This document shows positions 33,956 through 38,526 of a stretch of DNA of 64,000 bases, in pieces. This DNA comes from Candidatus Bathyarchaeota archaeon (GTDB lineage: Archaea; Thermoproteota; Bathyarchaeia; Bathyarchaeales; Bathycorpusculaceae). The notes under the pieces are model-generated. The model saw nothing but the letters and a program-made list of their open reading frames with translations, had not been told where the DNA came from and made no database searches. Location of the stretch: contig CAWHXY010000004.1 of assembly GCA_963833575.1 (NCBI GenBank), forward strand, positions 800,001-864,000, in the 5' to 3' direction. Positions within the stretch are counted from its first letter, which is position 1. The number at the start of each line of letters is the position of its first letter. Made by a program: the position numbers and the translations under genes.

Positions 33956-34558
33956 ATGTATAATGAACTTTATGCAGCATGGCAAAGAGAAATCGAAGAA
34001 AGATCGCTTGGAGGTTTACCACCTGACTTCTACGCTAGAATAGCCGATTACCTGCGACACATAAACGAAGAGAACAAAATGCTTGACAAAAAATCCATCA
34101 AAGTAAACCTGTTAGACCATGAAGCTCAGAACGTTAAGCGGATGCTTGAGGAACTGCTTTGGGCAAGATACAGGAAACTTGTTAAAACCATCACTCAAAG
34201 CAAGAAGTTGCCATCTGACTTGTTAACGGTTGAAGAAACCAAGATGTGTGAAAGTTTTGTCGCCTTCGCTGATGTATACCAAAGGTTCGCTAGAGACATC
34301 CTTCAAGGGCAAATCATCAAAGTGGCAGTTGTCGCCGCCATTGACTCGAAGGCAGACTTGAAGATAGAATCCAAAGTGGAAACTCCAGTTACTCATAAGC
34401 GAGTAGCTTTACGATTCATAAAGAATATTCCAACTATCATTGGGGCCGATATGAAGACTTATGGTCCATTCGTAGTTGAGGATGTTGCTTCTTTACCTGT
34501 TGAGAATGCTAAAATGTTAGTTAAACAGGGTTTAGCTGTGTCGATTGAGGTTTCATAG
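33956..34558 (+). CDS. gins15: GINS subunit Gins15 (Gins51)
   Basis: LPPDFY, IIGADMKTYGPF B-domain; follows priS. Confidence 0.85.
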   Translation: MYNELYAAWQREIEERSLGGLPPDFYARIADYLRHINEENKMLDKKSIKVNLLDHEAQNVKRMLEELLWARYRKLVKTITQSKKLPSDLLTVEETKMCESFVAFADVYQRFARDILQGQIIKVAVVAAIDSKADLKIESKVETPVTHKRVALRFIKNIPTIIGADMKTYGPFVVEDVASLPVENAKMLVKQGLAVSIEVS

Positions 34559-35603
34559 CGTTATCTATGATAGAATCGACTTTCTTTGTCTTTATCTTCC
34601 GCCATAAACCTTGACTCACAAGAATAATTAGTGGATAACAAACAATCCAGATAATCGCATATATGGGGCCGTAGTAGTAATGGAATGTTTGCACTTGGGC
34701 CGAGTCTATGCCATATTCTGTACCAATTGTAAAGATTGTGACTATTCGCAAGACGTTTATGAAGTAAGTAACCCCTGCTCCGAAGGCGAAGTATCCCACC
34801 TTAGCTTTCCAAGAGATTGGCATCCGCTGCAAAAACAGCAAAGTAACAGCCGTGAAAATTAGAAGACTTTCAATGCCTGCACAAGGCCAAGCTATCGCAA
34901 ATTTAGCTGTTCCTAATGATCCTGTTACTTGCAAGGTTGGCATGCCATTTTCTGTTCCAGTCAAAACGGCGTATCCCATTAAGCCCAGAACAAAAGCTGC
35001 AAGGGTGGCAGTTGTTGGAACTAATAGTTGAAATGGAGTAAATTGGCCATAAGGAAATATATTATCAATGGCATAAATTACCCCGACTAAACAGACAAAT
35101 AACGCAGGTAATGCAAAACCAGTCAAACCCTTTTTTCCAAAAAATAAGAAAGTGATTAAAAGGCAGAGAACTGAGAAAACAAGGTACTCCATCGCAATCG
35201 GCATGGACAAGAAGAAGGTAATCCCGATTTGTTTGGATGCATTTGCAATCGTCCAGTTTAGACCAAAATAATACTCCGAAATTACATACAACGTTGGAAG
35301 CAACAAGGCAACGGCGACTGCGATAAGTCCTGCCTTGTTTTGTTTGTTAATTTTCAGCTGAATATTTTCCCAGCTGAGAATGAACTCTAATGCTATTAAC
35401 CAAATAAAGAACAATTCGAAGGTTCTGCCCTTCCACATTAATTGAAACGAAAACTGGGAACTTGGTCCAAGGTATGGATCAGGCAGATTTAGCCAATACA
35501 GCAAAGCCAGCGGAACAACGAACGCAAATAACGGAAGCATTTTTATGAAGAATGCTGAGTGACTTTTGATTTTCATAAAAAGTTGCGATGTCAATGCATT
35601 CAT
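34521..35603 (-). CDS. Archaeosortase/exosortase family protein
   Basis: Multi-TM; catalytic Cys in IAWPCAGIES, Arg in INVLRI, His in FHYYYG. Confidence 0.85.
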   Translation of the reverse strand: MNALTSQLFMKIKSHSAFFIKMLPLFAFVVPLALLYWLNLPDPYLGPSSQFSFQLMWKGRTFELFFIWLIALEFILSWENIQLKINKQNKAGLIAVAVALLLPTLYVISEYYFGLNWTIANASKQIGITFFLSMPIAMEYLVFSVLCLLITFLFFGKKGLTGFALPALFVCLVGVIYAIDNIFPYGQFTPFQLLVPTTATLAAFVLGLMGYAVLTGTENGMPTLQVTGSLGTAKFAIAWPCAGIESLLIFTAVTLLFLQRMPISWKAKVGYFAFGAGVTYFINVLRIVTIFTIGTEYGIDSAQVQTFHYYYGPIYAIIWIVCYPLIILVSQGLWRKIKTKKVDSIIDNAMKPQSTQLNPV

Positions 35604-35822
35604 ACCTGCAGACTAGATATGATGTAACATTACTTTCAGTTTAAAAAAGGCTATGGCTTTTTGTCAAATAACGGGTTACTGAGAGCATCCACCAGAATTA
35701 TGATGGATAAATAAGCTTTGTAGATTCGATGGACGGTAGTTCAATGGGTGAATGCCTCGAGTTTTTATCTCATAAGTGAAAAAGTATAAGAATGCGTATG
35801 TTTCTTCTATGCAAAGCTGGTC

Positions 35823-36107
35823 GTGAAGAACGTGAACGTTCCCAAAGAAGTTAAAACTTACTGTCCAAAATGTAAAGCTCATCAGATTCACAGTGTAACC
35901 CTTTACAAGCCTGGGAAGCGCAGAGCGTTAGCTCACGGTGAGCGTGCCCATGCTAGAGAAAAAGAGGGTTACGGCGGACAAAAATATGCACTTCAAAGAG
36001 AATTTGCTAAAACAACTAAGAAACAAACCTTGCGCCTTAAGTGCAAAGTCTGCAATTTCATGAGGCACAAGGATGGTATTCGACTAAGAAAACTAGTTAT
36101 ACAATAA
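35823..36107 (+). CDS. rpl44e: 50S ribosomal protein eL42 (L44e)
   Basis: TYCPKC, GYGGQK, AKTTKK. Confidence 0.96.
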   Translation: MKNVNVPKEVKTYCPKCKAHQIHSVTLYKPGKRRALAHGERAHAREKEGYGGQKYALQREFAKTTKKQTLRLKCKVCNFMRHKDGIRLRKLVIQ

Positions 36108-36121
36108 TGGAGAAAACTGTT

Positions 36122-36319
36122 ATGTCTGAATGGAGTAAACTTATTCCGAAACCACGAAGCGTCTTCCTTAGAGTTAAATGTCCAAAATGTGGTAACGAAC
36201 AATTGGTCTTCAGCAATGCTGTTAACAAAATTAACTGCAACGTTTGTGGGGAAACCTTAGCCGAACCTTCTGGTGGAAGGGCAAAAATCAAAGGCGACGT
36301 ACAAGCAGTTCTTGAATAA
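36122..36319 (+). CDS. rps27e: 30S ribosomal protein eS27
   Basis: PRSVFLRVKCPKCGNEQ...CNVCG...PSGGRA. Confidence 0.96.
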   Translation: MSEWSKLIPKPRSVFLRVKCPKCGNEQLVFSNAVNKINCNVCGETLAEPSGGRAKIKGDVQAVLE

Positions 36320-36335
36320 GGGATGAAGTAACTTA

Positions 36336-36500
36336 ATGGCTGAGCGTAAGCCCGAGTGGCGAGAAGCCGGCAACTTAACAATAACCAGTATGAAAACATT
36401 CACTGACTTCGGCGCTTATAGTGAACTTGACGAAAATAATAAATACATTTTAGTCGCCAACAAAGCATGTGGGCAAGACATTTTCAGAAGGGAAGATTAA
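36336..36500 (+). pseudogene. eif2a: Internally deleted, degenerate aIF2-alpha remnant (54 codons)
   Basis: MAERKPEWREAGNL...TDFGAYSELDE matches the aIF2-alpha S1 start pattern (WPExGxLV...xxYGAYxxLDEY); lies exactly between rps27e and nop10. Confidence 0.8.
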
Positions 36501-36668
36501 ATGGTATGGCAACTGCGCAAATGCGTAAACTGCGAAAAATACACTCTGCAGAAGGATAAATGCCCTTTCTGTGGAGGACCAGTTAGGATTCCACATCCGC
36601 CGAAATTTTCTCCTGATGACAAATATCTAAAATATCGAATGGCTATGAAAAAGAGTTGTACTGAATGA
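36501..36668 (+). CDS. nop10: H/ACA RNP protein Nop10 (not in ORF track)
   Basis: MVWQLRKCVNCEKYTLQKDKCPFCGG...PHPPKFSPDDKY; 55 aa. Confidence 0.95.
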   Translation: MVWQLRKCVNCEKYTLQKDKCPFCGGPVRIPHPPKFSPDDKYLKYRMAMKKSCTE

Positions 36669-37438
36669 AAGAAACCTACATTAAAGAATTCATGGAAATT
36701 GAGCCAAACAATCCTGTTCTTATCGAGGGTCTCCCAGGTTTAGGCCTTGTGGGCAAAATTGCACTTCGTTACCTGATTAAACAATTAAAGGCCAAGAAAA
36801 TTGCTTATCTTTACTCGCCTCATTTTCCTTACTTCGTCTTAGTTAACAAAAAGGGCAACGTTCGTCTATTAAGAGGGGCATTTTACTTTTACAAAAATCC
36901 AACTGGATCAAACGATATAATCTTGTTCACCGGAGATAGCCAATCACAAACAATTGAAGGCCAATACGAAATTGCTGATCGCATCCTTGATTTCTCAGAA
37001 AAATACGGCGTAAAAACCATAGCGACCATTGGAGGGTACCGAATGGAGCCACAAGAAAAACCCAAAGTTTTCATCGCTGCAACATCACAGGAGGTATTGG
37101 ACAAAGCTTTGCAAGCAGGCGCAACCTTGAGCACTTCAGGAAGCCCCATTGTTGGCACAGCAGGATTAATTCTTGGTCTAGCCAAATTCAAAAAAATAAG
37201 CGCTCTTTGCCTCCTTGGTGAAACACGAGGTTATCTGCCTGATCCTCTTGCGGCAAAAAGCATTTTAGAAGTCTTAAAATCTACTTTTAACTTCGACTTA
37301 GACTTAACCGGATTAAACGAAGAAATTACTCGGGCAGAAACAATGGTGGCTCGTCTACAGCAAATTGAAGAAAAGCGTGCTTTGCAAGCAGAAGAAACAC
37401 GTAAAGAAGATGATAAGAAAACCACTTACATTTCTTAA
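36665..37438 (+). CDS. PAC2-family proteasome assembly chaperone
   Basis: LIEGLPGLGLVGK, LLGETRGY..DP; follows nop10. Confidence 0.9.
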   Translation: MKETYIKEFMEIEPNNPVLIEGLPGLGLVGKIALRYLIKQLKAKKIAYLYSPHFPYFVLVNKKGNVRLLRGAFYFYKNPTGSNDIILFTGDSQSQTIEGQYEIADRILDFSEKYGVKTIATIGGYRMEPQEKPKVFIAATSQEVLDKALQAGATLSTSGSPIVGTAGLILGLAKFKKISALCLLGETRGYLPDPLAAKSILEVLKSTFNFDLDLTGLNEEITRAETMVARLQQIEEKRALQAEETRKEDDKKTTYIS

Positions 37439-38526
37439 GTGGCAAAGCTTTTCTTTATTATTTCGAGAATTTTTTGGGCTGCAGTACCATCTCCGAAGGG
37501 TGAAGTAAACGGCAAACTCGTTTTCTTTTCTACAGCTTCTTCTATAGCTACTAAAATGTCTTTCTTATCAGTTCCAACGACTTTGGCGAATCCTGCTTCC
37601 ACTGCCTCTATTCTTTCAGTTGACAAACGCATTACTATAACTGGTTTCCTTATGTTTGGAGCGGTTGCTTCCTCTTGGATACCGCCTGAATCGGTGATTA
37701 ATAGTTTACAGTTTTTCAACAAGACCAAAAAATCCAAATATCCTTGGGGTGGAAGTATTAGCAGATTTTTTAGCGCTTCCATTTTCGTTAGTAAGTTGTT
37801 TTGTTGAAGTTGTTTTCGTGTTCTCGGATGCATCGGGTAAACAAAGGGGATGGGTGATTTCGAGAAAATGTAAATCAAAGATTCAAGAAAGGATGGGTCA
37901 TCAACATTTTCTGCTCTGTGCGCAGTTGTTAAGGCGAATGTTTCAAACGGAATTGTTTTCATGATTGATGATTTTTTTTCGGCGATTGTTAAATTTTCAA
38001 TTACGGCGTCAATTGCTGTGTTTCCAGTTAGGTAGATTTTGCCCCAGACATTTTCTTTTATAAGATTTGCTTTTGCTCGTTCGGTAGGTGCAAATAAGTA
38101 CTCAGATATGTGGTCGGTTAAGCGTCGGTTATGTTCTTCAGGCATGCGAAGATCAAAGCTTCTTAAACCAGCTTCTACATGGCCAATAGGTATCGTTTGT
38201 TTATTGGCCGCTAAAGCTGTTGCCAAAACACTATTTGTATCGCCTTCAACCAGAACTATTGAGGGTTTGATCTTTTCCAGCAACTGGTTCATTTTCGCCA
38301 TTATTTCTGCTGTTTGAGATCCTGGGGACGAGGCTTTAATTTTAAAAGAGAAGTCTGGTGGTGGCAATTCGAGGTTTTCGATGAATTGCTGAGACATGTT
38401 GTAATCATAGTGTTGACCGCAGTGGACAAATACTGATTTCATTTTTGTCTTGTTTAAGGCTCTGATTACCGGAGCCATTTTGATTATTTCAGGTCTTGTC
38501 CCTGCAACTACTAGTATTGGGTTCAC
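37435..38526 (-). CDS. wecB: UDP-N-acetylglucosamine 2-epimerase
   Basis: GTRPEIIK, HVEAGLRS, TDSGGIQEE. Confidence 0.95.
   Translation of the reverse strand: MNPILVVAGTRPEIIKMAPVIRALNKTKMKSVFVHCGQHYDYNMSQQFIENLELPPPDFSFKIKASSPGSQTAEIMAKMNQLLEKIKPSIVLVEGDTNSVLATALAANKQTIPIGHVEAGLRSFDLRMPEEHNRRLTDHISEYLFAPTERAKANLIKENVWGKIYLTGNTAIDAVIENLTIAEKKSSIMKTIPFETFALTTAHRAENVDDPSFLESLIYIFSKSPIPFVYPMHPRTRKQLQQNNLLTKMEALKNLLILPPQGYLDFLVLLKNCKLLITDSGGIQEEATAPNIRKPVIVMRLSTERIEAVEAGFAKVVGTDKKDILVAIEEAVEKKTSLPFTSPFGDGTAAQKILEIIKKSFAT

Follow-up and report, generated by a model that had tools for sequence, protein, structure and literature searches.

An aIF2-alpha gene cut down to an open frame between rps27e and nop10 in a Bathyarchaeota genus, and the paralog that supplies the factor

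The takeover of a core initiation-factor gene by a paralog, repeated across a genus of Bathyarchaeota, is well supported by comparison of 81 genomes. The dead operon copy persists as an open 'ghost' frame, which most likely serves the translational coupling of nop10. The window in which the locus was first seen is a stretch of 64,000 nucleotides from a Candidatus Bathyarchaeota archaeon, whose genome is labelled G000 (assembly of 2.75 Mb in eight contigs, 94% complete). In G000, the copy of aIF2-alpha between rps27e and nop10 (the syntenic or operon copy, S) is reduced to a relic of 54 codons, and the function of the alpha subunit is supplied by R, a paralog outside the operon. In about half of the species sampled, R has taken the place of S, which was lost several times independently.

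Gene order and the 54-codon frame

The genes L44E, S27E, aIF2alpha and Nop10 form the 'LSIN' cluster, which is presented as conserved in nearly all archaea in the cluster description by Berthon et al. 2008 (PMC2643942). The same description places a COG2047-type gene after the cluster, and PCNA, PriS and Gins15 genes often at its 5' side in other archaea. The first gene of the cluster in G000 is rpl44e, for ribosomal protein L44e (35823-36107; Pfam Ribosomal_L44, 1.8e-23), with an uncertain GTG start at 35823. This is followed by rps27e (36107-36319; Ribosomal_S27e, 6e-22), which starts either at the ATG at 36107, with a 1-nt overlap with the rpl44e TAA, or at the in-frame ATG at 36122, and which stops with the TAA at 36317-36319. 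After a spacer of 181 nt (36320-36500) come nop10 (36501-36668; Nop10p, 1.1e-23), starting with ATG, and a PAC2-family gene (36665-37438; PAC2, 6.5e-45) that overlaps the nop10 stop by 4 nt (ATGA). All of these genes are on the plus strand. Upstream of the cluster and adjoining it, a multi-pass membrane protein of 360 aa is encoded on the opposite strand (34521-35603).

The spacer holds one plus-strand ORF (36336-36500, 54 codons), the TAA of which abuts the nop10 ATG; the first-pass annotation had given these dimensions exactly. The ATG of the ORF is preceded by a 16-nt leader (36320-36335) containing a GGGATGA motif. In G000 the ATG within this motif opens a two-codon ORF (ATG AAG TAA, 36323-36331) directly 3' of rps27e. 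The ATG of the motif is in frame with the relic in many other species and lengthens it there by four codons.

Alignment to the full-length syntenic gene of a sister genome, G003, divides the ORF into two parts. The head (36336-36443) corresponds to codons 1-36 of the former gene, the start of its S1 domain, with 77 of 108 nt identical. The tail (36444-36500) corresponds to codons 244-262, stop included, with 39 of 57 nt identical. A single in-frame gap of 621 nt, or 207 codons, lies between the two. The head is nearer to the G003 syntenic gene than to the R of G000 itself (68 of 108 nt), and the tail aligns to the end of the syntenic gene only. By BLASTP, the product of the relic shares 20 of 36 residues with the full-length aIF2-alpha of G000, over residues 1-36, at an E-value of 2e-13. 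Homology to aIF2-alpha is found at the very position between rps27e and nop10, within a graded series of relics in 43 genomes, and identifies the ORF as the relic of S, from which codons 37-243 were lost in one in-frame deletion. The earlier annotation had proposed as much from the letters, describing about 36 altered aIF2-alpha-like codons, a C-terminus-like tail (GQDIFRRED), and the in-frame loss of some 200 codons followed by drift. The alignment bears it out, with EWPEAG changed to EWREAG, LDEYDK changed to LDENNK, GGQGTFRREK as the counterpart of the tail, and a loss of exactly 207 codons against the G003 gene. The drift is seen between G000 and G044, where pN/pS is 0.33 for the relic and 0.02 for the flanking genes.

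Little of the protein remains. The 54-aa product matches no Pfam family at E<=10. Codons 1-36 of the S1 region are still there and give no match to the S1 RNA-binding domain (PF00575); EIF_2_alpha (PF07541) and the gamma-binding C-terminal domain are gone with codons 37-243. The same 178/181-nt form of the spacer is present in two more genomes of the genus (G009 and G044). It is also crossed by a 14,556-nt DNA contig from an unrelated public run, which spans 35733-37497 with 102 substitutions and no gap, so that the view of the earlier annotation that this is no misassembly holds. A second DNA contig, of 164 nt and near-identical, spans 36218-36381.

An intact paralog and the partner subunits

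R is encoded on the minus strand of the same contig, 375 kb from the relic (G000:C4:460359-461147), as a protein of 263 aa. It carries both the S1 domain (1.5e-10; the S gene of G003 scores 5.4e-12) and EIF_2_alpha (PF07541, 1.5e-25). A PF07541 search of the whole G000 assembly gave one match above threshold, within R (G000:C4:460461-460787, minus strand, 91.5 bits). The partner subunits aIF2-beta (PF01873, 3.7e-36) and aIF2-gamma (PF09173, 2.1e-30) are present in the genome as well, so all three subunits are accounted for, alpha in the form of R.

Two explanations had been offered in the first-pass annotation for the short gene. The first, a lineage that initiates translation without the alpha subunit, is refuted by an intact R with both domains and under purifying selection, and by the presence of beta and gamma in the genome. 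The second, relocation of the gene, was roughly right in that another copy exists elsewhere; that copy is an old paralog which coexists with S in 21 of the 81 genomes, and the event is a takeover and no move.

Within one genome, R and S are 57-72% identical. Both copies are under purifying selection, with median pN/pS of 0.157 (R) and 0.183 (S) where they coexist, and of 0.088 (R) and 0.100 (S) where either is single. The weaker constraint in genomes with both copies fits redundancy.

In G000, a 112-aa protein without a Pfam family lies just 3' of R (L001 1049-1387, minus strand), and it adjoins R at 41 of 59 R loci. A 100-aa protein, also without a Pfam family, lies 5' of R and was found at 16 of the 59. 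In one clade (L160 1501-2365, G090; L150 928-2760, G088), the R position is between a protein of about 175-180 aa and a CxxC zinc-ribbon protein of 72-73 aa; an aIF1A-like ORF just 5' of this neighbourhood in G090 appears truncated in G088. G059 has two nearly identical full-length R genes, on G059:C8 (L080) and G059:C9 (L135), which are sisters in the tree and share 84% and 83% identity with the R of G000. The S relic of G059 has no old ATG and is out of the ancestral frame.

Census of the genus

The sample comprised G000 and 80 genomes drawn from a larger genus. The locus was located with the PAC2 gene as anchor, which was found in 81/81, and the distance between the stop of rps27e and the start of nop10 was measured. 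This distance is 795-812 nt in 38 genomes and 59-300 nt in the other 43. Full-length S and R occur together in 21 genomes, S without R in 16, and truncated S in 43; the remaining genome, G068, has R and a broken S. Among the 81 genomes, 37 have the full LSIN cluster and one more has it with a disrupted aIF2-alpha; all seven outgroup genera have it too. At the truncated loci the relics are 14-103 codons long.

An intact R was found in 36 of the 43 genomes with truncated S. In G084, R is divided between two contig ends. In G085 and G087 the only R matches (G085:C38:46761-47547 and G087:C21:206780-207567) have internal stops or frame breaks; these are either assembly errors or species without an intact aIF2-alpha in the assembly, that of G085 being about 90% complete. 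A genus-wide search gave an aIF2-alpha match in all 47 genomes with >=90% completeness and <=5% contamination. It gave none in G011, G066 and G096, and in G021 a match through the relic only, these four being 52-65% complete.

The broken S of G068 is of full size and holds four TGA, two TAG and one TAA (L134, G068:C1:666210-668700); the adjacent PAC2 match has stops too. This single-contig genome may be an error-prone assembly, or the locus may truly be decaying. PAC2 matches with stops or splits were also seen in G080, G083, G092, G044 and G074.

Duplication and repeated loss of the operon copy

The history of the two copies was read from a protein tree of 103 rows (59 R, 37 S and seven from other genera of the order), built as a quick IQ-TREE run under LG+G4. 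R forms one clade (SH-aLRT 100) and S another (91), and the two together are separated from the seven outgroup genera (100), each of which has a single aIF2-alpha, within the LSIN cluster. The R subtree mirrors the S subtree, with G069, G055 and G072 in the first-branching group of both. As R and S are each one clade with mirrored subtrees, the tree is read as placing a single duplication, the origin of R, ahead of the radiation of the genus as sampled, with either copy lost later. The stem of R is long (0.26), and a long-branch artefact drawing R to the base may be an alternative.

The flanking genes gave a tree with 81 rows and 1461 columns, on which the label of full or inactivated S requires at least six changes under unordered parsimony. 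A truncated gene cannot regrow, and the drawn tree would therefore imply about 8-10 separate losses of S under irreversibility. G000 groups with G009 and G044, which share its 178/181-nt form (support 100), and then with G013, G021 and G081 (99). The relics of these last three are shorter and keep subsets of the G000-type head and tail, for which reason the G000 form may be the older state in its group.

Retention of the open frame

An ORF spans the spacer at all 43 truncated loci. At 34 of them the ORF is in the ancestral frame and extends from the original ATG as far as the original stop, -1 to +2 nt away from where nop10 starts. At the other nine (seven classes) the frame is shifted, and the stop comes either 12-13 nt short of the nop10 start or 28 nt into nop10 itself. 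The old ATG is kept in 39 of the 43; the four genomes that have lost it (G062, G059, G077 and G082) all have an in-frame ATG 12 nt upstream. Proximity of the stop to nop10 was dropped as a statistic, as each of the three frames has a stop within -28 to +13 nt and such a stop is uninformative on its own.

The relics were grouped by length and sequence into 25 classes, a grouping by the authors in which classes are not fully independent. Eighteen of the 25 are in frame, against one third expected (binomial p 8.8e-5); when six in-frame classes are merged away, 12 of 19 remain in frame (p 0.0074). Stop codons were examined in the interiors, head and tail left out, of the eight classes with at least two members. 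At least 141 interior substitutions would be expected to create about 6.4 stops, and none was seen (p 0.0015); the two remaining frames of the same interiors hold 72. In a class of six genomes (105 nt in a 120-nt spacer), at least 41 interior substitutions have accumulated with no indel. Length differences within classes fall in the leader before the ATG, which measures 8-17 nt over the 43 loci.

These counts bear on the main alternative, a plain decaying pseudogene that is open because it was a gene until recently, with constraint on its last ~20 nt, the ribosome-binding region of nop10, and perhaps on its first bases. Much about the relics would suit it: interior pN/pS reaches about 1, the 54-aa product is without a Pfam match, nine of the 43 loci have left the ancestral frame, short spacers would often be open by chance, and the tail block resembles a weak Shine-Dalgarno sequence for nop10. 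A neutral pseudogene is expected to have a pN/pS near 1 and to gather stops, frameshifts and deletions of any length; the relics show a relaxed pN/pS and otherwise depart from this pattern. The spanning ORF has survived at every truncated locus, although S was lost several times independently and the loci fall into 25 length classes, the in-frame excess and the missing stops run the same way, and the six-genome class has taken its substitutions without an indel. Moreover, the head and its upstream motif are kept at all loci, even those with a 59-nt spacer, and a replacement ATG is present where the old one was lost. Plain decay is an unlikely account on balance, though one that still carries some weight.

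The vacated position of R offers a contrast in a single genome. In G090, which has S only, a spacer of 118 nt lies between the neighbours of R; each of the three frames is broken by stops there, and no relic of R could be recognised. In G088, R lies 30 and 252 nt from those same neighbours, that is, without a tight junction. Among other S-only genomes, the search for the vacated R locus gave a match of just 40 nt in G041, and in G064 it matched that genome's own S only.

Conserved nucleotides at both ends

Conservation of the relics is concentrated in two blocks, which are shared by truncated and full loci alike. The first is the initial ~17 nt, ATGGCTGAGCGTAAGCC, with each position conserved at about 90% or above, and the second is TTTTAGAAGGGA at -21 to -10 before nop10. 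Between classes the relic interiors are unrelated. Within classes relic pN/pS is 0.22-2.2, and for the same pairs of genomes rps27e and nop10 together give 0.00-0.09. In the shortest relics, of 14-18 codons, there is little beyond the two blocks, and they are more conserved per nucleotide than their surroundings, with 1/48 to 8/57 differences against a pS of 0.42-0.55 at flanking synonymous sites.

The TTTT(A/C)AGAAGGGA block in the tail is likely to be the translation-initiation region of nop10. The 16S rRNA has GGATCACCTCCT at its 3' end, to which AGAAGGGA, ahead of nop10, and GGGATGA, ahead of the relic, are both only weak Shine-Dalgarno matches. Conservation of the tail could be explained by the Shine-Dalgarno sequence and initiation region of nop10 alone. 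The start codon of nop10 is TTG in 62 of the 81 genomes, GTG in 13 and ATG in six, G000 among the last; in G000, G009 and G044 it is ATG or GTG and never TTG. Intact S genes stop at -1, 0 or +1 nt from the nop10 start, or at +2 nt in G048. In six of the seven outgroup genera the stop of aIF2-alpha shares 1 nt with the ATG of nop10, and in the seventh 2 nt lie between them. Its presence in the outgroups marks the tight stop-start junction as ancestral.

A possible hairpin of 4 bp, GGCT-GAGCGTA-AGCC, lies over codons 2-6 of the relic (36338-36352). The stem is kept in many relic variants, with loop changes and G-U pairs. This GGCT-N7-AGCC candidate was set aside, being of only 4 bp and broken in the intact S of G003, G071 and G042 (ATGGAGGAGCG).

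What is retained in head and tail might be RNA or DNA signals and not an ORF, for instance a promoter or processing site for nop10-PAC2, or the hairpin. The head is indeed conserved at the nucleotide level, synonymous positions included, the short relics outdo flanking synonymous sites, and by the authors' reading the stem can form in many variants. Yet the stem is the element broken in the three intact S genes, no Rfam family was found at E<=1 on either strand of 35600-37600, and the fold of 36300-36530 is no better than that of shuffled sequences (z -0.55). A pure signal model also makes no prediction of an in-frame excess or of stop avoidance.

Contigs from RNA libraries, too, pass through the relic. 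A metatranscriptome contig of 317 nt covers 36085-36378, from rps27e into the relic, and another covers 36393-36561, from the relic into nop10, with 16 differences. A third, from a relative, links 36326 to 36500 by 121 other letters, which corresponds to another relic length. These contigs come partly from relatives (90-96% alike), and such libraries can contain DNA; they are compatible with co-transcription and no proof of a single transcript. Contigs of four public runs were compared with the locus; no run contained half of the words sampled, the highest shares being 0.24 and 0.21, and those of RNA runs at most 0.13. Taken together, retention as a signal without translation is improbable.

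A functional micropeptide, for instance a piece of aIF2-alpha still able to bind one of its partners, is more improbable still. The ORF is open, its start codon has an upstream motif, and an N-terminal MAERKP and C-terminal FRRE(K/D) are common to most relics. The lengths nevertheless run from 14 to 103 codons with interiors unrelated between classes, pN/pS rises to about 1 or higher, the ends are conserved as nucleotides down to synonymous sites, and all of domains 2 and 3 has gone, along with most of the S1 fold. That the lineage has no aIF2-alpha, or that the short gene is an assembly artefact, was suggested by the local look of the locus only and is refuted by the intact two-domain paralog, by aIF2-alpha matches in all 47 high-quality genomes of the genus, and by the relic in G009, G044 and the independent gap-free 14.6-kb DNA contig.

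A proposed translated spacer ORF upstream of nop10

S is a relic whose task has passed to R. The preferred reading is that it is retained as a translated spacer ORF through which the translation of nop10 is coupled by termination-reinitiation; judged from comparison of the loci, this is probably the case. The amino-acid sequence of the relic would be irrelevant. Ribosomes would enter at the old aIF2-alpha initiation region, traverse the relic and terminate at the codon that touches the nop10 start, where they could reinitiate. By this route nop10, which mostly has a weak TTG or GTG start and a weak Shine-Dalgarno sequence, would keep its ancestral translation input, together with the PAC2 gene that overlaps it by 4 nt.

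The same reading would account for the shape of the relics. Once S had become dispensable, harmless deletions would be those that spared the initiation region, the open frame and the junction; others would starve nop10 and the overlapping PAC2 gene of ribosomes. If deletions are tolerated only when both initiation regions and the open frame are spared, stepwise shrinkage should follow, to 14 codons in some species. The stronger form of the proposal, held with slightly less confidence but still leaned towards, is that after paralog replacement selection keeps a sequence-free translated ORF purely to bring ribosomes from rps27e to nop10, within an operon that ranks among the most conserved of archaea, and that repeated in-frame losses, in dozens of species, have whittled it down towards a pair of abutting initiation regions. 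The earlier annotation had suggested tentatively that the frame was kept for coupling to nop10. Comparative support from loci across the genus (open frames, in-frame excess, stop avoidance) now stands behind the suggestion, and the coupling itself remains a likely explanation of these patterns.

Coupling of this kind has been studied by Huber et al. (PMC6728339, PMC10666635). In the portions of these reports that deal with spacing, coupling is described as tight in Haloferax volcanii and E. coli, a distance of about 20 nt nearly abolishes it, and in archaea an overlap or very short distance is needed. For two pairs of genes in E. coli, the final 15 nt of the upstream gene are given as enough for coupling (PMC10666635). 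The loci described here have the layout of a coupled pair, with co-directed ORFs whose stop and start are 0 nt apart in G000 and within -1 to +2 nt at 34 of the 43. The nine shifted loci, along with the weak coupling published for such distances, indicate that the constraint is not absolute; they argue either that it is leaky or that the shifts are recent.

Implications

The alarming reading of the locus is removed, as the archaeon is not without aIF2-alpha. A subunit of a core initiation factor has existed as two paralogs through the whole history of a large genus, and either may survive. The pair matters for the assignment of orthologs and for phylogenies in which aIF2-alpha or the LSIN cluster serves as a marker. 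For annotation, such ORFs of 14-103 codons will be entered as hypothetical proteins or overlooked, and the locus may be flagged as lacking an essential gene.

In titles and abstracts of the literature, no gene remnant kept for translational coupling was found, which is no proof of absence, and no aIF2-alpha duplication is described among the matches listed, although one may still be published. The relics would be comparative evidence that translational coupling constrains operon architecture, the frame outliving the gene. The natural series, from 103 to 14 codons and with stops at 0, +13 and -28, provides ready-made constructs for upstream ORF length and stop-start distance in archaeal reinitiation. 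If the ghost-ORF reading is true, the genus is a natural deletion series that shows the minimal requirements of reinitiation in archaea.

Comparison with known systems

The displacement of a gene by its paralog, followed by pseudogene decay, is a general concept. The history of S and R resembles it in the duplication, in the redundancy with relaxed constraint on both copies, and in the loss of one copy by lineage, S having been lost in 43 of 81 genomes and R not being found in 16 of 81. Unlike ordinary pseudogenes, S has not been erased here; it has been cut in multiples of three with an open frame retained.

Leader and upstream ORFs that serve the translation of the next gene are likewise a general concept. 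The likeness would lie in a short ORF valued by the downstream cistron for its translation and not for its product. The relic differs in deriving from both ends of a former essential gene, and it bears no sign of attenuation or sensing.

As compared with the LSIN cluster in the description of Berthon et al. (PMC2643942), gene order and orientation are alike, and a COG2047/PAC2-type gene follows Nop10 here too. The difference is that in G000 and 42 other sampled genomes the 'I' member has been cut to a relic of 14-103 codons, and that a paralog located elsewhere encodes the factor.

A further parallel is with the coupled gene pairs of the 2019 and 2023 studies, so far as their accounts of such pairs extend (PMC6728339, PMC10666635). 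There, as here, the genes are co-directed with stop and start touching or overlapping (0, -1 or +2 nt here), the downstream start is weak, and a short 3' part of the upstream ORF would suffice, as 15 nt did in their E. coli constructs. The junction here is mostly of 0 nt, as opposed to the -4/-1 overlap typical of coupled pairs. The upstream 'gene' of this pair is a functionless relic, and coupling itself would therefore be its only plausible value.
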